Shown here piece after piece: positions 22,264 through 57,561 of a stretch of 64,000 bases of DNA. Where the stretch lies: the NCBI RefSeq assembly GCF_045037415.1, contig NZ_CP173440.1. One strand, 5' to 3'. This DNA comes from Escherichia coli. Its GTDB lineage: Bacteria; Pseudomonadota; Gammaproteobacteria; Enterobacterales; Enterobacteriaceae. The stretch's first letter is position 1. Each line of letters opens with the position of its first letter. The notes beneath the pieces are model-generated. The model had not been told where the DNA came from. It was given only the letters and a program-made list of their open reading frames with translations, and searched no databases. The translations under genes and the position numbers were made by a program.

Positions 22264-22329
22264 TTTGCTACATTAATAACAAATCGTTAATAATACGGTG
22301 TTATGTTAACGACACCAGCCGAGCCATAC

Positions 22330-23815: not shown

Positions 23816-23878
23816 ATATACCTGCCTGATCTGATATTTACTCTCATCCCTACCCTGCCCCCTGCCTGAGCCACCGCT

Positions 23879-24301
23879 TTATTTCTTTCGGTACTGAATC
23901 TCAACTTTTTCCTCCTTTGTTTTGGCTTCAATACTTAATTCTGCGGTGGGCCTGAGTAGCAGGCGTTGCAGACCGATAGGTTCGCCTGTATCCCGGCAGA
24001 AGCCATATTCTCCTTTTTCAAGCCGCATAAGCGCTGCATCATATTTCGGCAACAGGCGGCTTTCTCTGTCTATCTGTCTGAACAGCAGACGTAACTGCTC
24101 TTCACGAATGGCGATGTCACCTTCGTCACCCGTTTCTGGATTATCCTGCAGTTGTTGCTTCATCTGGTCTATATGATCAAGCACCTCCTGCCTTTCGTGG
24201 CGGATAAGCCGCCGGAAGTAGTCCTGTTGCACAGGATTCATGTAATCTTCTGGCAGCATCGCCAGGATTTTTTCTCGTTCAGCGCGGGTAGGTTTAGTCA
24301 T
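23879..24301 (-). CDS. dksA2: DksA-like protein lacking the Cys4 zinc finger (DksA2-like)
   Basis: DksA/TraR C-terminal region is present, but only one of the four zinc-finger cysteines remains (GFCRDTG…ELSIEAK). Confidence 0.7.
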   Translation of the reverse strand: MTKPTRAEREKILAMLPEDYMNPVQQDYFRRLIRHERQEVLDHIDQMKQQLQDNPETGDEGDIAIREEQLRLLFRQIDRESRLLPKYDAALMRLEKGEYGFCRDTGEPIGLQRLLLRPTAELSIEAKTKEEKVEIQYRKK

Positions 24302-24329
24302 GTCCTGTACCGATAAAATTGCGTAATGA

Positions 24330-24348
24330 AACGTTATAACATAACATT
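24330..24348. promoter_or_regulatory. Zur-box-like operator upstream of the dksA2-like operon
   Basis: AACGTTATAACATAACATT (reverse complement AATGTTATGTTATAACGTT), about 29 bp upstream of the start codon. Confidence 0.55.
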
Positions 24349-24371
24349 AACTGCCGCTGCAAAATAACCTG

Positions 24372-25571
24372 TTAAGCCAGCCGGGCCACTTTCGTGGGCC
24401 AGGGATCGTGGAAAATCCCCCCCTGCTGCCACCAGAGAATTTCCTCTTCAGTGAGTAAACACTGGCGCAATGCGAGGGCAAAATCGTCAATTTCGCCGCT
24501 CTCGCCAATAACAGTCAGGCGGCAGCGCCGGTCACCAAATCTGCCAGGCATTTTTGCCAGTTGCTGACGGATAGCTGCGCGTTCTTCCTTTGTCAATGAA
24601 TTATCAGTGTGAGTCAGGACCCCGGCTTTCCAGTAGCTTATGAATTCGAGATTGATGCTCCCTGCTGCCTGGTTCCACAATAATGCCAGGTCATCCCTTC
24701 CCGGTAGCCAGAAAAACCCCTTGCTGCGGTAAACGCCTGCGCCCATGAAGCGATGGCAGGTATCCCACAGCCGCTGCGGATGAAATGGACGGTCATCCTC
24801 AATGACCCTCCACGAAATATCGTATTTTTTATCGGTTTCATCCGGCAAAACTGCGTCAATGGCATCCTGAAGCTCATCGATAAGTAACGCCACCCGATGA
24901 AAATCGTAATCCGGCATGGAAAGCAATTCATCCAGCTGTAAATTTCCCCAGGGCACGGCCATAATTGCAACCTGGGGATTAAGGGGATGTATGGCTCTGG
25001 CTACCTCAGTAACCACATAGAAGGGTAACCGGTCGTTTTTGGTTAATAAGAGCTTATTACAGAACATAATCTGTTCTGCCAGCAGGCTTTCCACTCCCCG
25101 GGTTCCTTTATTGAGGTGCTCCTGGAAAACCGGAATAAGCTTCTTTCCACCGTCGTAGTCATCATTAAGCATGACCGTATCAACAAGAGACAAAAATGCT
25201 TTGAGACTTACCTGGGTATGTTCTCGCAGATAGCGGACCAGGGGAAGAGGATGGCTGCTACCTGAGGTTTCCAGTAAAATAAAATCCGCAGACCGTTTTT
25301 CGAGCAGGTTTTTCAGCGCGGAATCCAGCTTCTGGATCCCGCTTCTGCTGCTGATACTGTCTGCTGAAATACTCACAAAATTGTTACTGGCTGCATCAAC
25401 GATTTCTGTGTTGGCTATCAGGACGCCATCCACATCAAGTTCACTCATGTCATTAACGATGACGGATACAGTCATTCGCCGTTTGTGTGCCTGTGTAAGA
25501 AGGTTTTTTAGCAGAGTAGTTTTCCCTGCCCCCAGAAAACCATTAAGGATAATGAGCGGTGTTCTTTTCAT
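24372..25571 (-). CDS. COG0523 (CobW/ZigA/YeiR-like) GTPase paralog with SxSA in place of the CxCC motif
   Basis: P-loop [11 protein letters not shown]. Where family members have GCICC this protein has VSISADS. Start set at MKRTPL. Confidence 0.8.
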   Translation of the reverse strand: MKRTPLIILNGFLGAGKTTLLKNLLTQAHKRRMTVSVIVNDMSELDVDGVLIANTEIVDAASNNFVSISADSISSRSGIQKLDSALKNLLEKRSADFILLETSGSSHPLPLVRYLREHTQVSLKAFLSLVDTVMLNDDYDGGKKLIPVFQEHLNKGTRGVESLLAEQIMFCNKLLLTKNDRLPFYVVTEVARAIHPLNPQVAIMAVPWGNLQLDELLSMPDYDFHRVALLIDELQDAIDAVLPDETDKKYDISWRVIEDDRPFHPQRLWDTCHRFMGAGVYRSKGFFWLPGRDDLALLWNQAAGSINLEFISYWKAGVLTHTDNSLTKEERAAIRQQLAKMPGRFGDRRCRLTVIGESGEIDDFALALRQCLLTEEEILWWQQGGIFHDPWPTKVARLA

Positions 25572-25668
25572 AGCATCCAGCCTTATGCCGCTAAACGTTA
25601 ATGCAATCAAGTTGCAATAATACCGGCTTCCTGCCAAAATTCAAATGACATGACTCGGAGGGGGAAAT

Positions 25669-26121
25669 ATGACAACACCAGTAGCCAAAACGTATGACTG
25701 GAAGCAAACGTTGCGCACACATGGTTTGCGGGCAACGCCATCCACCCTTGCTACACTGCAGTGCCTTGAACATGCCAGCCAGGCCATGAGCCATGACGAT
25801 TTAACTCAGCAACTGGGCGAGCAGGCTCCCGATCGTGTGACCCTTTACCGAATACTGGAACGGCTAATGCAGGTCAGTATTGTCCAGCGTTATACCGACT
25901 CGGCAAGAACTCAGCGTTTCGCTCTGACCCAACGGGCTGCCGTAGGACTTTTTGAATGCGATAACTGCCATCATGTTATTCCTATTGAGCAGGATCCAGC
26001 CCTGGAAGCGGCCATTGAATTGGTAAAATCACATCTCACTGGACATGGTATGACCGAACGGGAAATTACCCTTTCCAGTCATGGTATCTGTCCGGACTGT
26101 AATCGTACTATCACCAAATAA
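25669..26121 (+). CDS. zur: Fur-family metalloregulator, probable Zur
   Basis: CDNCHH…CPDC motifs of the Fur family; divergent from a COG0523 gene and co-directional with the CysRS paralog. Confidence 0.7.
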   Translation: MTTPVAKTYDWKQTLRTHGLRATPSTLATLQCLEHASQAMSHDDLTQQLGEQAPDRVTLYRILERLMQVSIVQRYTDSARTQRFALTQRAAVGLFECDNCHHVIPIEQDPALEAAIELVKSHLTGHGMTEREITLSSHGICPDCNRTITK

Positions 26122-26202
26122 TTTTTTTCTTATTCCGGACGACTGTTAATTAGCGCCAGGCGTGTTCGTGTGCTGCTATCTAAAAATAATGAGGTAAACG
26201 TA

Positions 26203-27585
26203 ATGATTAAACTAACAAACACGCTTGGTATGCAAAAGGAGCTATTAGTTCCGGTTAAAGAGAGCAAAATCGGCATGTATGTATGCGGCGTGACGGTTTA
26301 TGACCTTTGCCATCTTGGGCACGCCAGAACCTTTGTAGCTTTTGATATGATTGTCCGCTATCTGCGTTTTCGCGGATACGATGTGACTTTCGTGCGTAAC
26401 ATTACTGATATAGATGATAAAATTATTCAGCGCGCCCGTGATACGGGAGAGGACTGGCGCAGCCTGACAGAGCGGATGGTGCATGAAATGCACATTGATT
26501 TTGCAAAGTTAGGCATCCTGCCGCCAAACATCGAACCTCGTCCCACAGAGCACATCCCACAAATCATCAGTATGATCGAACGACTTCTGCATCGACAATT
26601 TGCTTACATTGCAGAGAATGGTGACGTCATGTTCTCCACTGCATCGGCAAAAGGCTATGGAAAGCTTTCGGGACAGGATATTACCATGCTTCGTGCCGGG
26701 ACCCGCATCGAAGTGAATGAGTATAAACGCGATCCGCTGGATTTTGTTCTCTGGAAGCGGGCAAAACCCGGCGAGCCCGTCTGGCCATCACCCTGGGGTG
26801 AAGGGAGACCTGGCTGGCATATTGAATGTTCCGCAATGAACTGCCATTACCTTGGTACCCATTTCGACATTCATGGCGGTGGTTCTGACCTGATATTTCC
26901 CCATCATGAAAATGAGATTGCCCAATCCACCTCCGCCAATGATGGCCCTTACGTAAATTACTGGCTTCACACCGGCATGGTGACGGTGAATAAAGAGAAG
27001 ATGTCGAAATCGCTGAATAACTTTTTTACCCTGCGCGATATTCTGAATCGGTTCGATGCCCAGAGTGTGCGCTTCTTCCTGCTAAGCGCACATTATCGTA
27101 AGCCGCTGAATTATAGCGAGGAGAATATTCACCTCGCGCGCGCCTCGCTGACACGGCTCTACACCGCATGCCAGTTCGCTGACGGGTCTCGATCTGAACA
27201 GCACGATGCATGGCGGGCCAGATTCTGTGAGGCAATGGATGATGATTTCAATACACCCCAGGCGCTTGCCATTTTATTTGAACTGACAAGAGAGATTAAC
27301 AGGCTTTGCGGAACGAATGATGATGAAGCCGCAGCACTTGCCACCACGCTGAAAGACCTGGGGAATGTGCTGGGTTTGCTTGAACAATCAGCGGATGCCT
27401 TTTTGAAAAACCGCAGTGATCTTCATCCTGCAGAACTGCAACTTATTGAAAAGTTAATTCACCAACGCAGTGAGGCACGACGTATGGGCAAGTGGGACAA
27501 GGCCGATCGTTTAAGAAATGAATTAGCGGAGCAAGGCATTGATCTTGAAGATGTCGGCGAAAATACCTCATGGCGTATCCGATAA
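26203..27585 (+). CDS. cysS: cysteinyl-tRNA synthetase paralog
   Basis: Full-length class I CysRS similarity (GMYVCG…HLGH, KMSKS). Zinc-ligand positions are conserved ([25 protein letters not shown]). Confidence 0.85.
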
Positions 27586-27620
27586 GTTGTCCCTCTGGAT
27601 GTAAAAAATTTCAATATCAA

Positions 27621-27639
27621 TTGTTATGTTATAACGTAA
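27621..27639. promoter_or_regulatory. Zur-box-like operator
   Basis: TTGTTATGTTATAACGTAA, 17 bp upstream of the flavoprotein start codon. Confidence 0.55.
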
Positions 27640-27655
27640 TGCAAAGGGTAATTTT

Positions 27656-28786
27656 ATGAACCAACCACGCGAAGTCGTTATTGTCGGTGCGGGTCCGGCC
27701 GGGGTGGGTATGGCGGCGCTTCTTCGTCGTAGTGCCATACAGGATATCCTGGTCGTTGACAGTCACGAAGTAGGTGCCTCCTTTATGCGCTGGCCGGAAG
27801 AAACCCGTTTTATTACTCCTTCTTTTTTTTCCAATCCGTTTGGACAACCAGACCTGAACTCTGTGACCCCTGACAGTTCATTGGCGCTTTTCTGCGGTGA
27901 AGAACATCCTGGGGGGAAAACTTATGCCAGTTACCTTAAGGCCGTACTGGATGAGTATCAGATACCCGTCATGGCTCCCGCCAGGATTGCAAAGGTTGCG
28001 TTGCTCAGTTCCGGTAATTTTATACTGATAACAGAAGCAGGAGAGAAGCTGGAAACACGCTCTTTAATATGGGCTACAGGCGAATTCCAGTTCCCAGACC
28101 GGCAGATTTTTCCTGGAGCAGATATTTGTTGCCATTACGGTGATGTGACCAGCTGGAAGGATTTCAGGAAAGGTGAATACATTGTTATAGGCGGCTATGA
28201 AAGCGCGGTGGATGCCGCTGTAAACCTGCTGGAAAATGGCTCATCGGTAAAAATGTTAACCCGCTCAGCCCCTTGGTCAACTAACCACATCAGCGATCCC
28301 AGTCTATCGCTTTCCCCTTATACCCGTGAGCGTTTGAACAGAGTGATGAATCACCGTCTTTTCGAAATTTATGAAGATGCGGATGTCTGTGAAGTAATCA
28401 GAATGCCCGGCCCGGGAAGTTCGTACAAAGTCCATACCACAAACGGACGCGCCTGGGCTACTGACGAGGTGCCTGTGCTTGCTACCGGCTTCCAGTGTGG
28501 CGGAGGAGCAAGGCAACTGGCTGCTTTTTTTGAATGGAATGATGATGGCTATCCGGTCTTAACGGACGAAGACTGCTCAACCCTTTTTCCTGGTTTGTAC
28601 CTTGTCGGCCCTCATGTGCGGCATGCCGGTAATATTTATTGCTTTATCTATAAGTTCCGTCAGCGCTTTCCCGTCGTGGCAGAAAGTATCACGCGTCATC
28701 TGGGCCTGTCCTCTGAAGGAGTACGGGACTGGTGGGTTCTGCCTTCAGAGCCTGACTGCTGTGCCGATGAGGACTGTGCGTGCTGA
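27656..28786 (+). CDS. FAD/NAD(P)-binding flavoprotein (flavin-monooxygenase or thioredoxin-reductase-like) with Cys-rich C-terminus
   Basis: VVIVGAGPAGVG FAD-binding fold, second GG…AVDAA dinucleotide motif, LATGFQ motif, C-terminal CCADEDCAC. Confidence 0.6.
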   Translation: MNQPREVVIVGAGPAGVGMAALLRRSAIQDILVVDSHEVGASFMRWPEETRFITPSFFSNPFGQPDLNSVTPDSSLALFCGEEHPGGKTYASYLKAVLDEYQIPVMAPARIAKVALLSSGNFILITEAGEKLETRSLIWATGEFQFPDRQIFPGADICCHYGDVTSWKDFRKGEYIVIGGYESAVDAAVNLLENGSSVKMLTRSAPWSTNHISDPSLSLSPYTRERLNRVMNHRLFEIYEDADVCEVIRMPGPGSSYKVHTTNGRAWATDEVPVLATGFQCGGGARQLAAFFEWNDDGYPVLTDEDCSTLFPGLYLVGPHVRHAGNIYCFIYKFRQRFPVVAESITRHLGLSSEGVRDWWVLPSEPDCCADEDCAC

Positions 28787-30447
28787 GGTCCGTGTTTATG
28801 CAATCATTCGTTTTAATGGGATTAGAAAGTGCAGGAAAATCTACCCTGTTTAATATCCTGACGGAAAGTGCTGCCAGTGATGAGCGTAATTTCAGGGGAT
28901 CGACCGTTGTATGTCGGGAAGGTCTCATTAATGATGCAGGGATCTGCCTGGTTGATACGCCAGGCATACGTTTTCAGAGCGACAGTGAAACCACAAAACT
29001 CGCCCTTGATGCGCTAAATCAGCATGATGGCATTCTGGTGGTTCTGCGGGCCACGCACGCTCAGCAGGAGTGGCAAACGCTCTGTCACCTCATACCGCCA
29101 CAGGCAAAACACGTTGTTATACTCCTGACCTTTGCTGATAAGATCAGAAAGGGCCTTCTGGAAGTGACTGAATACCTGAGTGAAACATCAGGTGCGCCGG
29201 TACTGGCAGTCAATGCCCGGGAAGCTGGCAGCAATGTTCGCCAGGGAATAGTGCAGTTGCTGTTGCAGGATAAACCTGCACCCTCCGCTGTCTCTTTACC
29301 CCGTCAAAAGATACCGGTAATTAATCTGCTGGCTGAATTTCCTCAACAAACGATATTTGAACATCGTTGGTGTGGAAAAGTTGCTGCAATAGTATGCCTT
29401 TTCCTGCTGTTTGCCGTTCCGGTATGGGGGGCATGGCTGCTGTCAGATTTTATTCAGCCTGTCATTGACAGTGCGGTTATTCAGCCGCTTAAGAATATAA
29501 CGACGAGCTGGCCCGACGTTCTGAAGACACTATTTGTCGGCAATTACGGTCTTTTTAGTCTGGGACTTTATTCGTTTGTATGGGCATTTCCTGTGGTGGT
29601 ACTGATAGGGTTGTCTCTTTCGCTGACTGACGACAGTGGACTTAAGGAAAGAATTACAGCGACGCTGGATCCCTGGTTGAGAAAACTCGGCCTCAGCGGT
29701 CAGGACCTTATTCCTGTATTAAGCGGTTTCGGCTGTAATGTCGTGGCGGTTTTTCAGAGCCGTTCGTGTTCGCGATGCACCCGGCATGCTTGTATAAGTA
29801 TGATTAGCTTTGGGTCCGCTTGCAGCTATCAGACGGGGGCGACGCTTTCTCTTTTTAATGCCGCCCATCAACCATGGCTCTTTATCCCCTATCTCAGTCT
29901 GCTGTTTTTCACAGGCGCAATACATACGCGCCTCTGGAACGGGTCGTTGAAGCCTGGCCAAAACCAGCGTCTGACAGAGATCACCTGGCTACAATGGCCA
30001 CGCTGGCGAAATGTGACATGGATGCTGAAAAATATCCTCCGTCAGTTCATTACGCAAGCCATGCCGTTATTCCTGATTATCTGCATTGTTGCGGGGATGC
30101 TTGATTACGCAGGGATCACTCGCTGGCTGAGTGAAACGACGGCACCTTTACTTCATCTTTTTAAACTGCCAGCAGAACTGATGCCCGGGATCATTTTTTC
30201 ACTGCTAAGGAAAGATGGTTTGATGGTGCTCAATCAGGATGGCGGCAGCTTAATACAGTCTCTCAGCACATCTCAGTTACTGCTACTTGTCTGGCTCGCC
30301 TCTACGTTGATGGCCTGCCTTGTCACGGTATTTACCATCGCCCGGGAAATAAACTGGCGGTTTGCAGCAGCAGTGGCGGGAAAACAGGTATTAAGTTCTC
30401 TGGTGGTGGCTCTGGTGATATCCCAGTTATTTATTCATGAGGCATAA
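28780..30447 (+). CDS. FeoB-family transporter with a divergent G-domain
   Basis: G1 GLESAGKSTLFN and G3 DTPG; membrane domain with LSGFGCNVVAV gate-like motif; shorter than canonical FeoB. Confidence 0.6.
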   Translation: MLRSVFMQSFVLMGLESAGKSTLFNILTESAASDERNFRGSTVVCREGLINDAGICLVDTPGIRFQSDSETTKLALDALNQHDGILVVLRATHAQQEWQTLCHLIPPQAKHVVILLTFADKIRKGLLEVTEYLSETSGAPVLAVNAREAGSNVRQGIVQLLLQDKPAPSAVSLPRQKIPVINLLAEFPQQTIFEHRWCGKVAAIVCLFLLFAVPVWGAWLLSDFIQPVIDSAVIQPLKNITTSWPDVLKTLFVGNYGLFSLGLYSFVWAFPVVVLIGLSLSLTDDSGLKERITATLDPWLRKLGLSGQDLIPVLSGFGCNVVAVFQSRSCSRCTRHACISMISFGSACSYQTGATLSLFNAAHQPWLFIPYLSLLFFTGAIHTRLWNGSLKPGQNQRLTEITWLQWPRWRNVTWMLKNILRQFITQAMPLFLIICIVAGMLDYAGITRWLSETTAPLLHLFKLPAELMPGIIFSLLRKDGLMVLNQDGGSLIQSLSTSQLLLLVWLASTLMACLVTVFTIAREINWRFAAAVAGKQVLSSLVVALVISQLFIHEA

Positions 30448-30449
30448 GT

Positions 30450-30656
30450 ATGATCCCCAAGACTTACCAGCAATGGTACCGGTGCATCACAGAAGAATGT
30501 GGAATTCCCTTGACGCAGGCATTTATTGCATCCCGTCTGGCAGTCCTTGAGTCCCAAGATCATCAGGAAACCAGACGTTTTGTCTCGCTATATGGGCAAC
30601 AACATCTGAATAGTGTTGTACAGTGGTTCAAAAAAGCTGGGGAAGAATTGTTGTAA
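30450..30656 (+). CDS. small hypothetical protein, translationally coupled to the FeoB-like gene
   Basis: 68-aa ORF starting 3 nt after the FeoB-like stop. Confidence 0.35.
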   Translation: MIPKTYQQWYRCITEECGIPLTQAFIASRLAVLESQDHQETRRFVSLYGQQHLNSVVQWFKKAGEELL

Positions 30657-30681
30657 ATCTGCCCCCTTTTCGCTTTCATAC

Positions 30682-30710
30682 GAAGGCACCCGACAAATGC
30701 GGGTGCCTTC
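30682..30710. terminator. perfect 11-bp stem hairpin between convergent genes
   Basis: GAAGGCACCCG-acaaatg-CGGGTGCCTTC. A near-identical hairpin recurs at 61555-61585. Confidence 0.4.
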
Positions 30711-30713
30711 GAT

Positions 30714-31937
30714 TCATTCTTCGAACCAGGGCTCAACAGGATCGGAATAATGCCGCCACTTTTGAGGCCCTTCTGCCATTTCTGCATCCGTTAACAGGGC
30801 GGAATCCAGTCTGTTGCGCAGTTCTGATTCATTCATATCCATTCCAATAAAAACGAGTTCCTGACGGGCATCACCAATGCCATCTATCCAGTTAGACATG
30901 ATGAACTTCAGTGACTCAGCATCCTCTGGCCAACGTCCTTTCGGCACACTAGCCCACCACATGCCCCCCAGCCCCTGGCGCGCAATGCCACCTGCCTGCG
31001 ACCATGAACCTGCGAATTCCGGACGGCTGGCCAGCCAGAAGTAACCTTTTGATCTGACGACTCCATCCAGCTCATTTTCCATCACCTGCCAGAAACGGGT
31101 CGGATGAAAAGGCCGGCGGGCGCGAAAGACAAAGCTGGTGATCCCATATTCTTCTGTCTCCGGCGTATGTTCGCCCCGGAGTTCTTTAAGCCAGCCGGGT
31201 GCCTGAGCGGCCTGCTCGAAATCAAACAGCCCGGTATTAAGTATGTTGCCCAGCGGAACCTGTCCAAACTGTGAAACAACGATTCTGGCCCGTGGATTAA
31301 GCGAACGTAAAATCGCCATCAGTTTTTCTTTTTGCGCTTCACTGATAAGGTCAACTTTATTAAGGACCAGCACATCACAGAATTCAATCTGATCGATCAG
31401 CAAGTCAACAACGCTCCTTTCATCACCTTCACCTAACGATTCTCCGCGTGACTGAATGCTGTCTTCCGAACCGTAGTCTTTCAGAAAATTGTACGCATCC
31501 ACCACAGTGACCATGGTGTCAAGGCGGGCCACCGTCGAAAGGCTTTCACCGTCATCGCCCGCAAAGGTAAATGTTTCAGCAACAGGCAGAGGCTCAGATA
31601 TACCGGTGGACTCAATGACAAGCTGATCAAAACGCCCTTCTTTTGCCAGACGATTAACTTCGAGAAGAAGATCTTCGCGCAATGTGCAGCAAATGCAACC
31701 GTTGCTCATTTCTACCAGTTTTTCATCAGTCCGGGAGAGTTCTGCACCACCTTCCCTCACAAGGGCAGCATCAATATTCACCTCAGACATATCATTAACA
31801 ATGACAGCAACACGACGGCCTTCCCGGTTGTTCAGAATATGGTTAAGCAGTGTCGTTTTCCCTGCTCCCAAAAATCCCGAAAGTACGGTAACCGGCAGGC
31901 GTTTATCGCCATGAAAATTTGCACTGACTTCGGACAT
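30714..31937 (-). CDS. COG0523 GTPase with canonical CxCC motif
   Basis: P-loop [11 protein letters not shown] and GCICCTL metal motif, followed by a CobW_C-like C-terminal domain. Confidence 0.8.
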
Positions 31938-31973
31938 TACCTTACATCTCCTCAGATATTCGTTGTGTTCGGA

Positions 31974-32381
31974 TTAACCAGGATCGTTGAGCACGGTTAG
32001 CTCATCGCCTTTAATGGCGTTGTAAAAACAACTCCGCCGACCTGTGTGGCAGGCTCCACCTTTTTGATCCACTAGCAGTAGCACCGCATCTCCGTCACAA
32101 TCCAGACGGATATCATGTACTTGCTGAACGCAGCCGGAGGTCTCACCTTTTCGCCAAAGGCATGATCGGGATCGCGACCAGTAACAGGCTCTGCCAGTCA
32201 ATAAGGTTTCATCAAGAGCCTGTTGATTCATCCAGGCAAGCATCAACACCTCTCCAGTGTCATATTGCTGTGCAATCGCAGCGATCAAACCATGAGAATC
32301 CCAGGGTATTGACGGCAGGATATCCTCAAGCTGAAACACTGCTCCTGCATGGGCTTTTTCCAGTAACAGAAACATTGGCAC
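31974..32381 (-). CDS. hisI: phosphoribosyl-AMP cyclohydrolase paralog (HisI-like)
   Basis: 135 aa with HisI-like core (…WSRSRS…[28 protein letters not shown]); Cys/His ligand positions appear retained. Confidence 0.65.
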
Positions 32382-32393
32382 CCCACCTTTTTG

Positions 32394-32411
32394 ATGTTAC
32401 GTTATAACATA
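32394..32411. promoter_or_regulatory. Zur-box-like operator
   Basis: ATGTTACGTTATAACATA, 13 bp upstream of the hisI-like start, in the divergent region with a Fur-family regulator gene. Confidence 0.55.
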
Positions 32412-32519
32412 TCAAACATAATTGCCAGTTATCACGATTTCACAGGCACTGTACTTCTTGGGTAACATCTGACCGGAAAAAGAAACAAAGCAAATGTGAT
32501 AGAGGCAGCAGGAGGCAAG

Positions 32520-33020
32520 ATGAATAACAAACTACATTCTGAATTGATTAAGAAAGCTATGTTCCCGGATCTAGGCTGTTCAGAATTTAGGGAACTGACT
32601 GCCCGTAAGGCGATGCGAATTACTCCGATGCGGATGATGGTGTATCACTTCATCAGGTGTGCTGAAGACAAAGGTATCAGTGCATACCAAATCCTTGACC
32701 AGTTAAAATCATATAACCCAAATGCAAAACCAACTACTGTTTATCGTACTCTGGATTATCTACAACAGGCTGGAGTCATTGTAAAAATAGAAAGCTGTAG
32801 CAAGTTTGTAAAAAAGAATAGCTTTCCCCATGAAGGATTAACACTTTTTATGATTTGTTCAAACTGCGGTACAATCATTCAGCATACAGACAGCAAAATA
32901 CAATATTACGTTGAGGATAAATCACATGAATATGGGTATATTATGCAAAGAAAGGACATAGAAATCAGTATAATTTGTCCCGGTTGTCAGGCTAATGAAA
33001 AAATGGCGCAATCTGGGTGA
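32520..33020 (+). CDS. second Fur-family regulator (low-GC, divergent from the hisI-COG0523 operon)
   Basis: Winged-helix region and CSNCG…CPGC structural-zinc-type motifs. Start set at MNNKLH. Confidence 0.6.
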   Translation: MNNKLHSELIKKAMFPDLGCSEFRELTARKAMRITPMRMMVYHFIRCAEDKGISAYQILDQLKSYNPNAKPTTVYRTLDYLQQAGVIVKIESCSKFVKKNSFPHEGLTLFMICSNCGTIIQHTDSKIQYYVEDKSHEYGYIMQRKDIEISIICPGCQANEKMAQSG

Positions 33021-33395
33021 ATTGTGCTCAATAAGCATACGATTAGTAACTTCCCATATTATATGTGAAACAGAAAAAATATTATTACGGTCGATAAAAT
33101 TAAGAATAATATAAATTAGCACTCCCACAAATATTGATTGAAATAATGCTGAATTATTTTCAATAAATAATACAAATAATGCAATTTGAAAAATACCTAC
33201 CTATCATGTTTAGCAAAGCATGACTATTTAGGATCATAAAAACAAAAAAGGAAATTTATAATTTATTTATTTTAACCGTTTTATTTGCACTCCATGTAAA
33301 TGCATGCTTAAATTCCCATGCATTTCCTAAACAATATTACTAATGACCTTTATATACAATAATACAGAAATCCTAAATAACTGATCCTAATACCG

Positions 33396-34390
33396 CTACA
33401 GTTTAGCCAACCCATGTTTTCCACCGGGGAATGGGCTGACGGTATTCATAAAGTGACGAACCTTTTTCAACAGTTTCCACATTGAGTGGCACTGATGATT
33501 TCGGGTTATTGTCTCGTGAAGCGCCTGCCACAACCGTTCGACATGATTGACCCGCGGCGAGTAAACCGGCTGATAAATTACCCTGAACTTCGGGTTTGCT
33601 TTCAGCCAACGCAACGTTTCACGGCTTTTGTGGATGATGTGGTTATCGACAATGAGCGTAATCGTTTTTGCCCGCCGGTATGTCGCCTTCAGATGTTTTA
33701 AGTCTGATAAATAAGGAAGAACCTTTACTGTTTCCACTAACGTAGCTGGCTTTTCCTGTATCGCTGTGCAGCGCACCGGCAAGATAGTACTTTTCATTCT
33801 GGCCCAGCGTGACTACGCGCTTTTGCTGCCCGCGCAGATGCCAGTCAGCACCAATTTTGGGATTGAGGTGAATATCCACTTCATCTTCGTAAAATACGGG
33901 GTTTTCCGCACTGCATTCGCCAGTGCTTCATGGATAGCGACCATTTTTTCTTCTTTGTGTGGGGCACGGATACGCAGTGTCGGCGCTGCTCTCCGCCATA
34001 CCAGTCCGGCAGCAGGTAACCATCGCCGGATGGTTGAAGCATGTAGCGGACAACCGATAACATCACGGACTTTTATCGCCAGCAGTTCGGTGCTCCAGCG
34101 GGAACGCTGATAACTGAAATCGCCGGGAGAATGCTTAACAAGCTCAAGCAGCAATGCGCAAATATGTTCGAACGGCCAGCGCCTCCCACGTCCTGACGGC
34201 AATGATTTCAGGCCTTCAGTACCAGACAGCGTGAACCAGTTAATCTAGCGACCAATCGATGAGCGGGCACAGCAGAGCGTTCTGGCAACATGACTGACGG
34301 TGTCACCATGATGCAGCATCAGCATGGCGGTGAGCCGCCGGGCGAGGTTTTTGTCCTTTGTTTTATTGATATTTTTATCCATCAGGCGTC
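33396..34390 (-). pseudogene. IS630-family transposase, broken into three or more frames
   Basis: ORFs 33396..33797 (DDE C-terminus, …YQPVYSPRVNHVERLW…) and 33813..34202 (N-terminal part), plus an HTH piece near 34250-34390. Confidence 0.55.
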
Positions 34391-34478
34391 ACTGGCTCTT
34401 GCCCGCATATCAGCTGCATTATAGTACGGCATCAGGTAATTCCTTGATGGTTGTTATCCGCGATATCAGACCTGACGT

Positions 34479-35460
34479 CTATTTATTGGGCTGAATTTCC
34501 CGGATGCTGCTTAAATCACGGTGACGTGAACTCCAGACGCCGCTTCCGACCGCGGCACCGGTGGATTTTCTGAAGCGCAGGCCGCACTCACTGACCCACT
34601 GGGAACTGGTTTCCCGCAGCCTGACTAAACGGGGTTGGTAGCATTCAGTAACGGTCCCGGTGTGAGTCATCTTCTTCTGCTTTTTCGTTTCATGGACATG
34701 GGTGACCTTATCTGACGAACCATTCACCGCCCGGTCACGGTATTCAGTAGGGATCTCCATAGACAGGCGCAGAGGCAGGGCCCTGCCCTGCCCCGGGACG
34801 GGTAACAGACTGTCCGCCGTGGCTTTCAGCCAGCCATACAGCTTATGACCATTACCCGGAATGCCATCAAGCGTCAGTTTACGCGCGGTGAAGCTCCCGT
34901 CCTGCCTTCGGACCTTCCGCAGGAAGGTACCCAGAGGCTTACCAGACTCAACCGGCTCCGCCACAATCTAGTCATACCCTGGAAACTGATCGAGCATCAG
35001 GTCGATATACTCCCAGTCGAGGACGACAATGACGTGGCCATGAATGTCAGGGCCGTCATTCCACTGTATGGCAATGACATAAGGGAACAGCATGTCGTCG
35101 TGAACTCAGAGATACTGAACTAGGCTCTAGCTGGCCAGTTCACAACTGCCGGCCGGAAATGGCTTCAGCCAGTCACGCCAGAGGGAAGGTACCGGCTCAC
35201 CGGACCGTTCTCCGGCGGCCAGCTCCAGCGCCCGACGGAAGGCCTTCACACGGGCCCAGGTTTCCGCATTCATTTCTTTGCCTTCCCATCAGCACGCGCT
35301 AGGATCAGCAGGCTGAACGCGTCACGAATAACAACTCACTAGATACCATAGCCACCTGACTGCACAGGTAAATCAATGAATTCTGGCGGCCCGGCCAGTA
35401 CCTTTGTCAGATCCAGCGGTAGATGTATGACATTGGTCATTCACCGGCTAGGTTCACAAA
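34479..35460 (-). pseudogene. degraded gene of unknown family with several in-frame TAG stops
   Basis: Consecutive minus-strand coding-like segments are interrupted by stops, several in CTAG context. Confidence 0.3.
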
Positions 35461-35611
35461 GGTGATCTGGTGTGGGAAAGCGGAGCGTTTTACCAGAAAA
35501 TCAAATATAGTTGACAGGCAGGATATTACATATGGTCAACTCATGTGATCTGTATCTTATTATACGAAAAATGGAACTCATCTTAATATGTTGATATAAA
35601 ATCACTTTATA

Positions 35612-36175
35612 TTGAAAACCTCATATTATGGCACACTGCCTGCGGTAGATAGTGCTAACGAAAAGCAGCCACTGATGATTGGCTCCCATATTGACACCGT
35701 TGTAAACGCCGGCGCTTTCGATGGTTGTTACGGTGTCCTGTCCGGCCTGGCTGTCGTCAGGGCTTTCAGAAAAGCCGGGATCAAACCTTCCCGCCCGATT
35801 ACTGTCGGCGCATTCACAAACGAAGAGGGTATCCGTTATCAACCCGATATGATGGGATCGCTCGTCTATGCAGGGGGGATCTCGCTGAAGAAAATCCTGG
35901 ACACTGTCGGCACTGATGGCACACGTCTGGGTGATGAGCTGCAGCGTATTGGCTATGCGGGAAACCTGGAGCCCGGCTCGATCGTCCCTCATGAATACAT
36001 TGAACTGCACATCGAACAGGGACCTGTTCTTGAAGCCGAAGGGATCCAGATCGGTGCTGTCGAAAATCTTCAGGGAATTTCCTGGCAGGAAATCACCATC
36101 AAAGGCACGGCAAACCATGCAGGCACCACGCCGACACGGCTACCCGTTCTTACGATCCGGCAGTCTAGGAAATGC
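35612..36175 (+). pseudogene. fragment of an M20-family amidohydrolase (allantoate/N-carbamoyl-amino-acid amidohydrolase-like)
   Basis: Internal region only (…GSHIDTVVNAGAFDGCYGV…GTANHAGTTP…); N- and C-termini are missing. Confidence 0.5.
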
Positions 36176-36533
36176 TTGAAAAACGGATGCGTGTTATCTG
36201 TAATTCTGTTTGCGCAATGCACGAAGCAGAATGTGAATTCATTTACACACATGAGTTTTCACCTACAGTCGATCATCCGCGGGAAACTGCATATGCAATT
36301 GACGCAGCGGTTCGCGTATTCGGCGAAAAAAATGTGGATTCCACGGTGACGTGTTCATACTCAAATCTCCTGCAATATGGGAGATTTGAGTATGGTTGTA
36401 CCTTGTGAGCGAACAGCGGGAATTCGCAAATGTTTCACATCTGATCAAGGCATTACTTAAAGGATGCTGTGGTAGCCAACGGGGAGCAGGTCAAAGCAAT
36501 TACAAATTGGTTTGAATTGCAACATCATGCAAA

Positions 36534-36553
36534 TAAATGTTATGTTATCACAT
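36534..36553. promoter_or_regulatory. Zur-box-like operator (one mismatch to the window consensus)
   Basis: AAATGTTATGTTATCACATT, about 25 bp upstream of the probable ATPase start. Confidence 0.45.
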
Positions 36554-36577
36554 TACTTAAGTGGCATATACAGTGAC

Positions 36578-37387
36578 ATGAACAACAATCTTCCTTATCC
36601 AATACCTGTGCTTGATGTTAAAAGCGTCAGCATTTCTACGGGCCATTCTGCTCTGGTTAGCGATGTCAGCTTTCGGCTCCAACAAGGCGAGCGGGTCTGT
36701 ATTATCGGCTCATCAGGGTCAGGTAAGTCTCTGACGGCAAAAGCCATTATAGGTACATTGTCTGCCGGGCTGTTATTACAAGGAAGCATTCGTATAAACG
36801 GTGCGGATGTCGTTGGCCTTCATCCCACCCGGCGCCCTCAGCATGCGCTGGTATCCGCCATCTTTCAGGACTCTTCCACCGCGCTGAACCCGCTGATGCC
36901 GGTGGGGCGACAGCTTGCTCTGGCGTTGAAAACAGGTGATAACGCGATGCTGGGCTCTTTGCTGGATGCGCTACAGCTCAGCGATATCCCTCAATTGCTC
37001 TCCCGCTACCCGGCAGAGCTTTCCGGTGGGCAGCGTCAGCGGATTTGCATCGCGCTGGCGTTGCTGGGGAATAATCGCCTGCTGGTTGCTGATGAACCGA
37101 CGACGGCACTGGATGTGATTAGCCAGCAGCAGGTTTTGCAGATATTAGTTCAGGGTTCCACGATGAGAGCTCCGCCTGCGTTGCTCTTCATCACACATGA
37201 TATTGCCGTTGCCACACAGTTGTGCCAGCGAGGTATCGTGGTGGAAAAAGGCAGGATTGTGGAGTCAGGCACAATGGACCAGCTCCTGAACGAGCCGGAG
37301 CATCCTTACACCCGCAAATTGGTACGGGCCGCGCGAGCCGCTGAACAGACGTTGTTAACACACACCCGTGAGGTGCTCGCCGGATGA
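36578..37387 (+). CDS. ABC transporter ATP-binding protein (Nik/Dpp/Opp-type, D-like)
   Basis: Walker A GSSGSGKS, signature LSGGQRQR, Walker B LLVADEPT. Confidence 0.8.
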   Translation: MNNNLPYPIPVLDVKSVSISTGHSALVSDVSFRLQQGERVCIIGSSGSGKSLTAKAIIGTLSAGLLLQGSIRINGADVVGLHPTRRPQHALVSAIFQDSSTALNPLMPVGRQLALALKTGDNAMLGSLLDALQLSDIPQLLSRYPAELSGGQRQRICIALALLGNNRLLVADEPTTALDVISQQQVLQILVQGSTMRAPPALLFITHDIAVATQLCQRGIVVEKGRIVESGTMDQLLNEPEHPYTRKLVRAARAAEQTLLTHTREVLAG

Positions 37388-38217
37388 GTATTCCCCTGCA
37401 GATGGCATCCGACTCCTTCATTCAGGTCGACAGGATTTCCCGCTACCGGAGTCACCCCGGACTCCCTTGGCAGAAGACCCTGCCAGTGAATGCCATTCTT
37501 AAAGATTTTTCGCTCACACTGCGTCAGCATGAGCGTGTTGGCCTGTTAGGATGTTCGGGCTGTGGAAAATCGACGTTACTGAAAGCTATCTTGGCCCTCG
37601 ACCCGGTAGATGACGGTGAGGTGTATTGTGATGGAAAGGTGGTCAGGCCCGGCTCTGCCCGAATATTGCGCTGGTATCGCCGCAGGGTTCAGTACCTTCC
37701 TCAGGAACCCGCCAGTACGTTGCCGCCGTCAATGCGTGTCAGAGAGATTCTCAACGAGCCGCTAAGACATTTAGGCTGCAACCGTGATGCGTCACCTAAT
37801 CTTGCCGCCGCGCTTGAACAGGTCGAACTCAGCGCAAAAGTTCTCGATCAGCGTGCAGGCTCGCTTTCAGGGGGGCAGGCTCAGCGCGTTGCGCTGGCAA
37901 GAGCGCTGATCATACAGCCCGATTTTTTGCTGGCCGATGAGCCGGTCAGCGGGCTGGATCTTCCCCTGCGTGAGCAAATCAAATTGCTACTTTTGCGTAT
38001 AGCAGAAGAAAACCGCATGGGGCTGCTGATTGTCTCTCATGACATTTCTATGCTGGCAGGGTTGTGCGACAGAACGCTGGTCATGGTGGCTGGAAAAATC
38101 ATTGAAGATCGCCCGACGTTTGAAATGTTGCATTTACCTCATCATCCGCATACGCGTCAGCTTCTGGACGCGGTACCGGCTCTTGTAACTCATGCCCCGT
38201 CGCTGGCACGTGGCTGA
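37384..38217 (+). CDS. ABC transporter ATP-binding protein (F-like)
   Basis: GCSGCGKST, LSGGQAQR, LLADEP; ATGA overlap with the upstream gene. Confidence 0.8.
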   Translation: MSIPLQMASDSFIQVDRISRYRSHPGLPWQKTLPVNAILKDFSLTLRQHERVGLLGCSGCGKSTLLKAILALDPVDDGEVYCDGKVVRPGSARILRWYRRRVQYLPQEPASTLPPSMRVREILNEPLRHLGCNRDASPNLAAALEQVELSAKVLDQRAGSLSGGQAQRVALARALIIQPDFLLADEPVSGLDLPLREQIKLLLLRIAEENRMGLLIVSHDISMLAGLCDRTLVMVAGKIIEDRPTFEMLHLPHHPHTRQLLDAVPALVTHAPSLARG

Positions 38218-38243
38218 ATACACTTTTAACGAATAATCTCATT

Positions 38244-39488
38244 ATGACTGAATTGATTTCAGGGAAGAAAGCGAACACCTCCCCTTCATTGCTGCTTGTC
38301 AGCCAGTTTATTTTTAATACCGGTTTTTATGCGGTAGTGCCTTTTCTCGCTATTTTTCTGCGCGATGACATGCTGTTGTCCGGTGCCGCGATTGGCCTGG
38401 TGCTCGGTCTCAGGACCTTCTCGCAGCAGGGTATGTTTCTGGTTGGAGGGGCACTGACTGACAGGTTTGGCGGACGTGCCATCATTCTGTGCGGCTGCGT
38501 GGTCCGAATCAGTGGCTACCTGCTGCTCGCCATCAGCGCCTCGTTATGGGGCGTTATTCTGGGAGCCTGCCTGACAGGGATTGGCGGTGCGCTCTTCTCG
38601 CCTGCAATCGAGTCGCTGATGGCTCAGGCGGGGACGCAAAGTGAAAGGGAAGGCAAGCGCAGCCGTTCAGAATGGTTCGCGTTGTTCTCTGTTTGTGGTG
38701 AGCTGGGTTCAGTCATCGGTCCTTTGCTGGGAGCATTGCTGACAGGGTACAGCTTTCAGAGTGTGGCCCTTGGCGGGGCAGGCGTCTTCTTGTTTGCGCT
38801 GATTATGCTCTATTTCATGCTACCGACAGGCACCAGCCATCATGGCACGCTTAAAATTTCCCCTTGGTGGACGGCATTTCACCAGCGCCGCTTTGTTGCC
38901 TTTATCGTTGCTTACAGCGCGTATTTATTCAGCTATAACCAGCTCTATCTGGCGTTACCCGTTGAACTACGCCGCTCCGGGGGAAGTGAGGCCGAGCTCG
39001 GCCCGCTGTTTATGCTGGCCTCAGTCATGATCATTTTCCTGCAATTGCCTCTGGCACGGTTTGCCCGAAAACGCGGCGCATCACAGATTTTGCCTGTGGG
39101 ATTTTTGCTGCTGGCACTGTCATTCTTTAGCGTCGCTCTGTTCGCCGGTACCACAGCGCCAGACACTCTGTGGCGGCTGCTTCCCGCGGTTTCACTAGTC
39201 ACGCTGCTGACGCTTGGCCAGATGCTTATTGTGCCTGTGGGCATGGACATGATCCCTGTTTTTGCCCGGGATAAAAATCTTGGGGCGCACTACGGAGCAC
39301 TCTCCTCCATGGGCGGCGCCACCGTGCTGGCCGGCAATTTTGCCCTCGGCGGGCTGCTGGATCGCGCACTCATCCCTTCTTCGCAGGCTTTTGTGCCATG
39401 GCTACTTATGGGCTGCATTCCGTTATGCAGCGCGGTTGCCATGCTGTTTATTTTACGATCGTTTAAAACGACCTCTGGAAATCAATAA
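38244..39488 (+). CDS. MFS transporter embedded in the ABC operon
   Basis: About 12 predicted TM helices; MFS-like signature GGALTDRFGGR. Confidence 0.65.
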   Translation: MTELISGKKANTSPSLLLVSQFIFNTGFYAVVPFLAIFLRDDMLLSGAAIGLVLGLRTFSQQGMFLVGGALTDRFGGRAIILCGCVVRISGYLLLAISASLWGVILGACLTGIGGALFSPAIESLMAQAGTQSEREGKRSRSEWFALFSVCGELGSVIGPLLGALLTGYSFQSVALGGAGVFLFALIMLYFMLPTGTSHHGTLKISPWWTAFHQRRFVAFIVAYSAYLFSYNQLYLALPVELRRSGGSEAELGPLFMLASVMIIFLQLPLARFARKRGASQILPVGFLLLALSFFSVALFAGTTAPDTLWRLLPAVSLVTLLTLGQMLIVPVGMDMIPVFARDKNLGAHYGALSSMGGATVLAGNFALGGLLDRALIPSSQAFVPWLLMGCIPLCSAVAMLFILRSFKTTSGNQ

Positions 39489-39498
39489 GGACAGATAA

Positions 39499-41025
39499 AT
39501 GAATACGGGTAAATCATTATGGCCTGTTTATGGGCTCTTGTCAGCCACCTTATTACTGACTGGCTGCTTTAATGAACCGCAGGACGAATCGGTCAGCGCC
39601 AGCGAGGGCAGAATTAAAGTGGCGCACCTTCTTCCACCGCGTTCCGGCCTGACGCCGCTCAGTGATGATGCATTTAAATTATCGCGCTGGAGCACGGCTG
39701 AAACCCTGGTCGTACTCAACAGCGCCAGTGATGCACAGCCTGCGCTGGCAACCAGCTGGGAGCAAATCAATGACACAACCTGGCGTTTTGAATTGCGCCC
39801 GAACGTCAAGTTTCATGACAATACCGATCTAACCGCGCAGTCGGTGGTTAACGCGCTGAGCGTTGCCGCTAGCGCCAAACCAAAGCCCCGTATTCTGGAT
39901 GGCATAACGCTCACAGCCAAAGTAGACGGCGATAATGCCGTACTGATCACGACTGAAAAACGCGATCCTCTTCTGCCTCAGCGTCTTTCCAGCCCTCAGC
40001 TGGCCATTTTGTCGCTGAATGCTTACAAAGAAAATGGCGTGGTGAACCCAGTTAATGCAGGAACCGGGCCATTCATTCTGCGCAGCGTGAATGGCACCAG
40101 CAGTGCCGCGCTCGATCGCTTTGATGGCTACTGGGGCGAGAAGGCGAAAGCTAGCGGTATTGACGCAAGCTTTGTTCCGGACGGGGCCGCGCGCGCAGCC
40201 GCATTACGTACTGGCACGGCGGATATCATTGAGGCAATTCCTGTGTCTCAGGCCCCGCTTCTGGATCAATCACTGGTTCATGAAGTCCCGATGCCGAGAA
40301 CCAATACGCTTTATCTCAATACGGCGCAGGGCGTGATGAAAGATCCAGCTATGCGAGCCGCAGTCCGTGACGTGATTAATCGTCAGCAGATTGTTGATAA
40401 TGTCTATGAGAAACGTGCCGACGTCGCGCAGGGGCTTCTGGGGCCAGCCTTGCCATGGGCCGCACCACTGCGCAAACCGGTGACCAACCCCGTTGCAGCG
40501 GGAAAACCAGACGGGGCCACAATCACTCTGGCAACGTTCAGCGATCGTGCGGAATTGCCTGAAGTCGCGGTCTATCTTGCACAGCAGCTCATTGCCGCCG
40601 GGTTTACCGTGAAACAAGTGGTCCGCGAGTATTCGCAGATTGAAGCTGATGCGCTGGCCGGAAAGTTTGATGCCTTTATTCTGTCGCGTGCAACCGTGCT
40701 GGATTCCGGTGACCCGGTTGCCTACATGTACAGCGATTTCGCCTGCGAAGGGTCGTTCAATATATCCCAGCTGTGCCGCCCGGAAATTGATGCAGCGCTG
40801 AAAAAAGCCCGTGAAACGCCAGCGGGTGAAACCCGACGTCAGGCCATTATGGACGCTGAAAACATGATCCTTGCCAGTGATGCTGCGATCCCAATACTAC
40901 ATGAGCGCGTCATTCAGGGAGAAAGTGCGGTAGTGAAAAATGCGCTCCGTGACCCTCGCGAGCGCACGCTCATCGACAGCCAGACCCAATTAGTCGCTGG
41001 CGAACATACTACTGCTGCGCAGTAA
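39499..41025 (+). CDS. family-5 (NikA/OppA/CntA-like) substrate-binding lipoprotein
   Basis: Lipoprotein signal (LLLTGC); size and composition of family-5 solute-binding proteins. Confidence 0.7.
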   Translation: MNTGKSLWPVYGLLSATLLLTGCFNEPQDESVSASEGRIKVAHLLPPRSGLTPLSDDAFKLSRWSTAETLVVLNSASDAQPALATSWEQINDTTWRFELRPNVKFHDNTDLTAQSVVNALSVAASAKPKPRILDGITLTAKVDGDNAVLITTEKRDPLLPQRLSSPQLAILSLNAYKENGVVNPVNAGTGPFILRSVNGTSSAALDRFDGYWGEKAKASGIDASFVPDGAARAAALRTGTADIIEAIPVSQAPLLDQSLVHEVPMPRTNTLYLNTAQGVMKDPAMRAAVRDVINRQQIVDNVYEKRADVAQGLLGPALPWAAPLRKPVTNPVAAGKPDGATITLATFSDRAELPEVAVYLAQQLIAAGFTVKQVVREYSQIEADALAGKFDAFILSRATVLDSGDPVAYMYSDFACEGSFNISQLCRPEIDAALKKARETPAGETRRQAIMDAENMILASDAAIPILHERVIQGESAVVKNALRDPRERTLIDSQTQLVAGEHTTAAQ

Positions 41026-41043
41026 AACAGGGGTTATTGATCA

Positions 41044-46779: not shown

Positions 46780-47178
46780 TTAGATCAGGAAATCTTCGAG
46801 AGTTTTTCCTGAATCCAACTGAGCTTTAATTGGTGCCGGGGTACGACCCTGACCTGTCCAAGTTTTTTGCTCACCAGCTTCGTCTATATAAGCATATTTC
46901 GCCGGACGAGGTTCACGCTTTTTTCGTACTTTAATGTTAACGGCCGCGTCCATCAGTTCATTCGGATCTATACCATCAGCGATTATCATTTCCCGGTACT
47001 GAGAGAGTTTTTCTAAACGCTCTCGATTAGCTGCTTCGGCCGCCTTTTCTTCTTCACTGCGTTCAGTGACTACAACAGTGAACTTTTCTAATACTTCTTC
47101 GAGCACTTCTAATGGCAGCTCTCGTGCCTGAGCGCGAAGTGTACGGATGTTATTGAGAACCTGTAATGTCTCGCTCAT
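46780..47178 (-). CDS. H-NS-family nucleoid-associated protein
   Basis: [20 protein letters not shown]…[16 protein letters not shown]…TWTGQGRTP matches H-NS/StpA along its length. Confidence 0.85.
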
Positions 47179-55651: not shown

Positions 55652-55653
55652 GA

Positions 55654-57543: not shown

Positions 57544-57561
57544 TTGTTATGTTATAACATT
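57544..57561. promoter_or_regulatory. Zur-box-like operator
   Basis: TTGTTATGTTATAACATT, the best match to the window consensus. Confidence 0.55.

Follow-up and report, generated by a model that had tools for sequence, protein, structure and literature searches.

The DNA analysed here is a 64,000-nucleotide stretch of contig NZ_CP173440.1 from an Escherichia coli assembly, referred to as the window. At positions 30714 to 33020 it carries three genes: hisI2 and zigA, which lie in tandem on the minus strand, and reg2, which encodes a Fur-family regulator and runs divergently on the plus strand. Between 30600 and 33100 the window is 100% identical to many large Klebsiella pneumoniae IncHI1B/IncFIB virulence or hybrid plasmids, such as NZ_CP072809.1, whose RefSeq annotation calls the three genes zigA, hisI and “transcriptional repressor”. 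Judged by its sequence, the window belongs to a virulence plasmid of K. pneumoniae, of the pLVPK-type/IncHI1B-IncFIB kind. The zigA-hisI2-reg2 module forms the right end of an island of zinc-related paralogs (15789-33020) bordered by ISKpn21 and IS630 remnants. Besides the module, the island contains hemB, pyrC, an M14 peptidase gene, a short thrS, DUF1460, QueD-like and gamma-carbonic anhydrase genes, folE2, dksA, a COG0523 gene (cog0523#1), another Fur-family gene (reg1), cysS, and genes for an FAD oxidoreductase, a FeoB-like protein and a protein of 68 residues (orf68). In Haas et al. 2009 (PMC2770081), the pLVPK cluster is explicitly marked among Zur-regulated islands of zinc-independent paralogs with COG0523 genes. 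A related module adjoining the integrative and conjugative element (ICE) ICEKp has received the name KpZM (Lam et al. 2018, 10.1101/098178).

The zigA gene (30714-31937, minus strand) encodes a COG0523 zinc metallochaperone GTPase of 407 residues. Its product scored 702.2 bits against the NCBIfam ZigA equivalog NF038288 (cut-off 600; residues 14-401 covered), and the translation contains the G3E P-loop GFLGAGKTT and the CxCC motif GCICC (in SNGCICCTL). Separated from it by 36 nt is the first gene of the operon, hisI2 (31974-32375, minus strand), a paralog of monofunctional phosphoribosyl-AMP cyclohydrolase genes. The HisI2 sequence scored 171.5 bits against the monofunctional model NF000768 (cut-off 126), matched the solved HisI structure 1ZPS with E=2e-40 and keeps the DCDGDAV and GGACHTGxRSCFY motifs; its product is a predicted phosphoribosyl-AMP cyclohydrolase. 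Past zigA, a GC-rich hairpin of 12 pairs (30681-30711), located between zigA and the convergent orf68, is likely a terminator shared by the two; it was the only terminator-like hairpin in a scan of 30500-33400.

Directly 5’ of the hisI2 ribosome-binding site, 19 nt from the start codon, lies the 10+10 palindrome TGTTACGTTATAACATATCA (32395-32414), which shows no mismatch to TGWNAYRWTATAWYRTNWCA, the structure-based operator of E. coli Zur (EcZur) (PMC4219657). Sites with at most two mismatches to TGWNAYRWTATAWYRTNWCA occur six times in the window versus 0.19 expected, and none of 100 shuffles reached six; three of the six precede island operons (24327, 27622 and 32395). A Zur box is also found at the equivalent place beside the hisI ribosome-binding site in 10 other loci (L002-L005 and L007-L012). 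The TATAAC inside the box is likely the -10 element of hisI2, and the operator would cover both the core promoter and the 5’ end of hisI2-zigA; a consensus promoter scan called no promoter at 32395-32414. The same scan returned a weak promoter-like site for reg2, TTCACA-18-TAACAT (32439-32468, plus strand; 9 of 12 consensus positions), which does not overlap the Zur box. The original prediction of a minus-strand operon made up of a HisI paralog and a CxCC-type COG0523 gene, here ZigA, behind a Zur box was thus borne out, and we consider with considerable confidence that hisI2-zigA is a single transcription unit behind a canonical enterobacterial Zur operator, so that control by host Zur-Zn is to be expected. 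In Acinetobacter baumannii, zigA is Zur-regulated. The gene described here resembles that one in belonging to the NCBIfam ZigA equivalog (702 bits) and in having a Zur box upstream, and differs from it in its predicted co-transcription with a hisI paralog and in being paired with its own divergent Zur-derived regulator.

That regulator gene, reg2 (32520-33020, plus strand), is intact, encodes 166 residues and has AGGAGG 5 nt 5’ of its ATG. It is the divergent low-GC Fur-family gene expected at this position, with 37.5% GC versus 50% for zigA and hisI2. The product belongs to the Fur superfamily (PF01475), with a winged-helix domain, a dimerisation domain and two CxxC pairs. Against the Zur model PRK11639 it scored 84.8 bits, below the cut-off of 167, with Zur the top-scoring family by 45 bits and the Fur and PerR models under 40 bits. 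A phmmer search matched 19 Fur-family sequences of the PDB, headed by EcZur (4MTD; 71.4 bits, E=9e-19) and Zur of Xanthomonas campestris (XcZur; 54.5 bits, E=1.5e-13) and followed by Fur (36.8 bits), PerR (32.9) and Mur (5FD6; 23.9); no Nur was matched among the PDB sequences. The AlphaFold2 model (pLDDT 83) superimposed in Foldseek on DNA-bound EcZur 4MTD with a TM-score (TMt) of 0.84 and a root-mean-square deviation of ~2 Å, and on holo XcZur 7DH8 with a TMt of 0.86 and ~2 Å, as against ~10 Å for apo XcZur. In a neighbour-joining tree of 79 sequences (capped distances, 500 bootstraps) reg2 fell within the Zur cluster. Clustering with iron or manganese sensors, named beforehand as the result that would speak against a Zur-like regulator, was therefore not seen, and the best PDB matches are likewise Zur proteins. 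EcZur and XcZur (7DH7/7DH8) are thus the closest known relatives of reg2 in sequence and fold, the structural Cys4 site is retained, and the operator that reg2 adjoins is a perfect fit to the structure-based motif of EcZur. It differs from them in that it is only 28-30% identical in sequence, misses the NCBIfam Zur equivalog cut-off, has a longer N-terminus and is an accessory, mobile-element-borne second copy beside the core-genome zur.

The largest difference lies in the regulatory zinc site (site B). In EcZur its ligands are H77, C88, H96 and E111 (PMC4219657), and the XcZur equivalents are H99, C110, H118 and E133. The H99A and C110S variants of XcZur no longer bind DNA, and the acidic ligand is said to occur in all active Fur-family structures (PMC8216289). 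At these four positions reg2 has V, K, G or L, and Q, the third being a loop position whose assignment depends on the alignment, so that none of the ligands of either Zur is present. The equivalents of H77, C88 and H96 are absent from reg2 and from every hisI/zigA-linked relative, and the replacement of the otherwise universal Glu111, by Gln in reg2, is an additional change in the Klebsiella family. This apparent absence of the Zur zinc-sensing site had been missed by the original prediction. The DNA-reading residues, in contrast, are kept. The base-reading pair Tyr45/Arg65 of Zur is present in reg2 (Y56, R76) and invariant in its clade, the backbone-contact residues Arg23, Thr25, Arg28 and Tyr64 (EcZur numbering) are retained, and the equivalents of R23, T25, R28, Y45, Y64 and R65 are essentially invariant throughout the clade. 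The dimer-dimer salt bridge of the Asp49/Arg52 type is D-K in reg2 and mostly D/E-K/R in the clade, and the structural Cys4 (C113/C116/C153/C156) is invariant. The clade alignment showed no conserved His and no extra Cys; besides the Cys4, the only conserved metal-ligand candidates are the carboxylates E91, D124 and E148.

A profile search of 1.84 billion representative sequences returned thousands of Zur-like proteins. Nearly all of the nearest ~45 keep H/C/H/E, the exceptions being the family of reg2 itself and a handful of deeper ones; the ~35 next-nearest Zur relatives retain it. In the tree, the 14 proteins without H77/C88/H96 formed one clade (bootstrap 497/500), within which reg2's own family was recovered in 478 of 500 replicates. 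Of the 16 loci with a member of this clade, 13 have its gene oriented divergently to zigA or to hisI-zigA. The partner is hisI2-zigA in the chromosomal KpZM of K. pneumoniae GCA_900493035 (L002), another KpZM (L009), Phytobacter (L008), Superficieibacter (L007, L011), Tatumella (L010), a genome labelled Martelella alba (L012) and two metagenomic contigs (L003, L004); it is zigA directly in L005, L030 and L033, and in L031 the clade gene adjoins zinT. In Siccibacter (L013) neither hisI nor zigA was found near the clade gene, and no neighbour was identified. Each of the intergenic regions at these loci contains one box of type TGTTAYGTTATAACRTAACA, and a search for operator differences separating the reg2 sites from the host-Zur sites found none, all being of one box type. 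The ratio of non-synonymous to synonymous substitution rates (dN/dS) is 0.21-0.25 for reg2 versus 0.05 for zigA, i.e. reg2 is under purifying selection and evolves faster than its neighbour, and it is monomorphic across 506 plasmid records. Purifying selection and monomorphism together argue that reg2 is not a decaying gene. We thus hold with high confidence, from sequence comparison, that reg2 belongs to a distinct, monophyletic proteobacterial Zur branch that is without the regulatory-site ligands, keeps the DNA readout and is tied to zigA.

The original prediction had also noted the low GC content of reg2 and regulators of apparently different origin. Low GC does not mark a separate, recent origin of reg2: in all 10 loci measured, from Klebsiella to Tatumella, the regulator has 37-43% GC versus 47-53% for hisI and zigA, and the gap recurs although synonymous sites are saturated, for which reason we regard low GC as a trait of the reg2 family. 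Recent foreign origin on the basis of GC content is therefore ruled out. Directly 3’ of reg2, before the IS630 remnants, lie 375 bp at 25% GC (33021-33395); H-NS could plausibly target the whole AT-rich block that includes reg2, and the window has a gene of the H-NS family at 46780-47178.

The account that fits these observations best, and that we put forward as plausible rather than probable, is that the three genes are the terminal module of a mobile zinc-starvation island under host Zur and a Zur-derived local regulator. Given the perfect EcZur-type operator, host Zur should repress hisI2-zigA; the chromosomal Zur-Zn would do so in zinc sufficiency and release the operon in zinc starvation, as with the other Zur-boxed island operons. 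Since reg2 keeps every DNA-reading residue of Zur and adjoins a single operator, that box is its most likely binding site, and as it is without the ligands that EcZur and XcZur need for DNA binding, its active conformation could not depend on site-2 zinc. We therefore propose, tentatively, that reg2 binds the Zur box and there serves the ZigA operon as an additional, local repressor or gatekeeper, with DNA binding independent of zinc at the canonical site. Its activity might be set by its abundance, by whether the Cys4 site is filled or oxidised, or by some other signal, and with a second repressor hisI2-zigA would be released at a threshold of its own, unlike that of the rest of the Zur regulon. 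Shin and Helmann 2016 (PMC5007448) describe a comparable graded derepression in Bacillus subtilis, where operons of the Zur regulon are released at different thresholds. There, a single Zur with sequentially filled sites is responsible (PMC5007448), unlike the second, sensor-less protein that would act as an extra tier here. The full extension of this proposal is rather doubtful: a zinc-blind Zur branch, shared by the virulence plasmid and KpZM, would gate the ZigA operon while reg1 would have lost the acidic ligand independently, giving the zinc-starvation response of the island two-tier control without classical metal sensing.

Several points weigh against a zinc-independent repressor. Mutations of site B ligands abolish or greatly weaken DNA binding in EcZur (PMC4219657) and in XcZur (PMC8216289); as such mutants bind poorly, a protein without site B might do so as well unless its active conformation is stabilised by other contacts. 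The holo-like conformation of the AlphaFold2 model may reflect no more than training bias. It is hard to see what selective advantage a repressor without any input would bring, which implies that there is a signal, and the Klebsiella-type family does conserve Cys93, His122 and usually an N-terminal Cys as a possible replacement site. In addition, the promoter predicted for reg2 is a weak one whose relation to the Zur box is uncertain, and the link of reg2 to the box, or to zinc, is one that we infer.

Other explanations were weighed against the same evidence. The Rfam scan of the whole window returned no RNA family, and a riboswitch or small-RNA explanation was dropped on that ground. If the conserved residues of the Klebsiella-type family do form a rebuilt site, reg2 would be a true zinc sensor and a dedicated repressor freeing the mobile module from host Zur, a reading that we consider unlikely. 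The ligands would be either Cys93, His122 and the N-terminal Cys of the Klebsiella family or the clade-wide carboxylates Glu91, Asp124 and Glu148. Cys93 is invariant and His122 nearly so within the family of 55-64% identity, Asp124 is a conserved acidic residue specific to the clade, zinc-starvation neighbours (zigA, hisI2-zigA or zinT) are present at all readable loci except L013, and sensing sites in the Fur family do vary between lineages (PMC4219657, PMC8216289). However, the wider clade has Lys or Gln at the position of Cys93 and Tyr at that of His122, Cys93 would by alignment sit at the tip of the wing hairpin (the T82/N83 region of EcZur) and off the hinge, the universal acidic ligand is Gln in reg2, and the remaining conserved candidates are all carboxylates. 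By their coordination chemistry, carboxylates are poor ligands for femtomolar zinc sensing.

That host Zur alone controls hisI2-zigA, with reg2 acting on other targets or travelling along as a near-neutral linked passenger, seems improbable, even if the box is a perfect EcZur-type site of the same kind as at island operons with no regulator of their own, and even if Zur-regulated hisI/COG0523 paralogs are found with no local regulator in Pseudomonas fluorescens and Cupriavidus metallidurans, as reported in PMC2770081. A passenger would also fit with reg2 evolving 4-5 times faster than zigA at non-synonymous sites and with the loss of the reg2-type gene from the second, degraded module in the window. 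It fits poorly with a divergent zigA linkage that persists down to 33-38% identity and across genera, with invariant DNA-reading residues and with a dN/dS of 0.21-0.25 rather than 1; furthermore, the sole operator-like site near reg2 is the hisI2 box. A third possibility, which we judge very unlikely, is that reg2 opposes Zur, either as a competitor that occupies the box and does not block, as a partner that poisons Zur through heterodimers or as an activator, and so raises expression of the chaperone operon. The retained dimerisation domain and Cys4 site would allow this, a zinc-blind protein could remain bound after Zur leaves, and Zur can activate transcription in Streptomyces coelicolor, according to PMC5472717 and PMC11077047. 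Against it, the box, 19 nt from the start codon and over the likely -10 element and transcription start site, is in the position of a repressor site, nothing indicates heterodimerisation, and an identity to EcZur of 28-30% would make stable mixed dimers unlikely. Dual control of hisI2-zigA, by host Zur and by a Zur-derived local repressor, is the reading retained in what follows.

The other Fur-family gene of the island, reg1 (25669-26121, plus strand; 150 residues), is followed by cysS2 and is not of the Zur type. Its NCBIfam scores were 34.7 bits for Fur, 31.6 for Zur and 30.5 for PerR, all far under cut-off, and its best PDB matches were PerR and Fur with E of about 1e-6. It has the Cys4 site, Asp at the position of Tyr45, and Q/F/A/P at site B, with Pro at the universal acidic position. 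In the neighbour-joining tree it grouped with EcFur outside the Zur cluster (489/500), and on these sequence criteria it is a Fur-superfamily member of no assignable subfamily. It lies between cog0523#1 and cysS2 in Pantoea, K. variicola and metagenome-contig islands (L027, L028, L029), adjoins cog0523#1 in L012 and follows folE2 in an Erwiniaceae locus (L026). No Zur box was found in its promoter region (25572-25668). Instead, the cog0523#1/reg1 intergenic region contains a candidate reg1 operator, GCAATCAAGTTGC (25603-25615), of the form GCAAY-N3-RTTGC. Two more such sites, at 20096-20108 and 20127-20139, lie upstream of the thrS2'-M14-pyrC2-hemB2 operon, and the fourth, at 63897-63909, is in a duplicate copy, making four exact sites in the window versus 0.6 expected. 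The motif is kept upstream of reg1 in L012 and L026-L029 and beside thrS2 in L026-L029; counting the window, five independent islands have it at both genes.

The question raised at the outset, which regulator controls which operon, thus receives a computational answer in the form of a split by operator type. Zur-type boxes precede dksA2-folE2-cam (24327-24346; perfect, with no mismatch), the FAD-oxidoreductase/FeoB-like/orf68 operon (27622-27641; two mismatches) and hisI2-zigA, for which control of the host-Zur type is predicted, and GCAAY-N3-RTTGC sites mark cog0523#1/reg1-cysS2 and thrS2-...-hemB2 as the predicted reg1 regulon. Of the two or three Zur-like regulators that the window had been thought to hold, more than one Fur-family regulator was indeed found, but reg1 is not Zur-like and the third is a degraded copy of reg1. 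A six-frame phmmer search found exactly two Fur-family open reading frames in the window, at 25669-26121 and 32520-33020, and a third intact regulator is ruled out: the remaining candidate, which starts at 63963 and runs off the window, is the reg1 copy with a 32-residue deletion and a frameshift.

That copy belongs to a decayed second copy of the module at 57545-64000. The region contains a Zur box (57545), an ATP-binding cassette (ABC) importer of the FecCD type (58000-60809), a KpZM-type promoter remnant with the regulator's first codons (60807-60983), a hisI fragment (60974-61144), a 3’ fragment of zigA (61147-61605) and a cog0523#1 copy of 97.6% identity with the start of reg1 (62651-64000); a deletion has removed the gene of the reg2 type. 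The intact cog0523#1 (24372-25571, minus strand) has SISS where ZigA has CICC and is 29% identical to ZigA; the absence of CxCC appears odd for a zinc island, and its place appears to be in the regulon of reg1, not in that of Zur. The thrS2 gene (19062-20063, minus strand) encodes ~333 residues corresponding to the catalytic and anticodon half (TIGR00418 positions 319-562), where ThrRS2 of homologous islands has 650-682 residues; it may be a truncated gene that keeps reg1-type operator sites.

Comparison with KpZM revealed that the module on the plasmid is a mosaic. KpZM (L002, L009) shares the layout of FeoB-like gene, orf68, zigA, hisI, regulator and FecCD-type ABC importer, and differs in its regulator allele, which is ~56% identical to the plasmid allele at the protein level (synonymous divergence, dS, of ~1.3); in L002, hisI also has a TGG-to-TGA nonsense mutation (~3113), with zigA and the regulator intact. 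From 29042 to 32041 (FeoB-like gene, orf68, zigA and the 3’ part of hisI2) the window is 100% identical to the chromosomal copy in L002, and the identity then collapses through the 5’ part of hisI2, the promoter and reg2. Relative to the classical pLVPK-type plasmid L035 the pattern is reversed, with 100% identity over ~31950-36400 and 88-90% over zigA. These identities place a homologous-recombination crossover inside hisI2, at ~31950-32240, with the zigA side as the part replaced from KpZM, so that the native regulator would now face a zigA allele of ICE origin. The opposite possibility, a reg2 allele imported into the plasmid, is ruled out by the L035 comparison. Between the two native sets, dS is 1.27 for the regulator, 0.55 for zigA and 0.12 for hisI. 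The mosaic at 29042-32240 is evidence that the island has been exchanged between ICE and plasmid.

The operon, the island and its Zur boxes had been known before this analysis, and each of the three genes has a RefSeq annotation. The islands described in the accessible text of Haas et al. 2009 (PMC2770081) likewise contain paralogs of hisI, pyrC, cam, hemB, cysS, thrS, queD and dksA together with folE2, COG0523 genes and predicted Zur boxes; regulation is presented there as Zur-dependent, and those parts of the paper do not mention island-encoded Fur-family paralogs, missing sensor sites or a second operator type. Lam et al. 2018 (10.1101/098178), in the text available, describe KpZM as a module only and do not discuss its regulators. 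Searches of the literature on second or paralogous Zur, on pLVPK and zinc, and on Klebsiella zigA yielded as relevant only Haas 2009 and the naming of KpZM, and neither a zigA-linked Zur clade that is without site B, nor the reg1 operator and regulon split, nor the hisI crossover was found in the searchable literature. What appears to be new is that the island encodes two Fur-family regulators without a canonical sensing site, one of them Zur-derived and strictly zigA-linked. Zinc starvation imposed by calprotectin is a main host defence, and the island rides on the plasmid and the ICE that define hypervirulent K. pneumoniae. Should reg2 bind this box while not sensing zinc at site 2, it would illustrate how the fold of a metalloregulator is turned into a repressor under different control, and a COG0523 metallochaperone whose clients remain debated would have a second tier of control. 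The predicted operator partition provides a concrete wiring diagram for regulation of the island.

Further features were noted elsewhere in the window and just past it. PADLOC gave no defence-system match for the regulators or the small open reading frames. At 54689-56220 (minus strand), Cas6/CasE-like and DinG/Csf4-like helicase genes beside an IS5 element suggest a remnant of a type IV CRISPR-Cas system; a tandem-repeat search of 46-58 kb found no repeat array near them. At 36538-42819, a Zur-type box with two mismatches lies just 5’ of an ABC importer of the Nik/Cnt-like (opine-metallophore) type with an embedded major facilitator superfamily gene; these genes may equip the virulence plasmid for zinc-metallophore uptake. 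Finally, just past the right end of the window, at 12097-13473 of NZ_CP072809.1 (L034), the degraded reg1 copy has two genes beyond it, for a c-type lysozyme inhibitor and a peptide deformylase paralog, both of which could be further zinc-starvation paralogs of the island.

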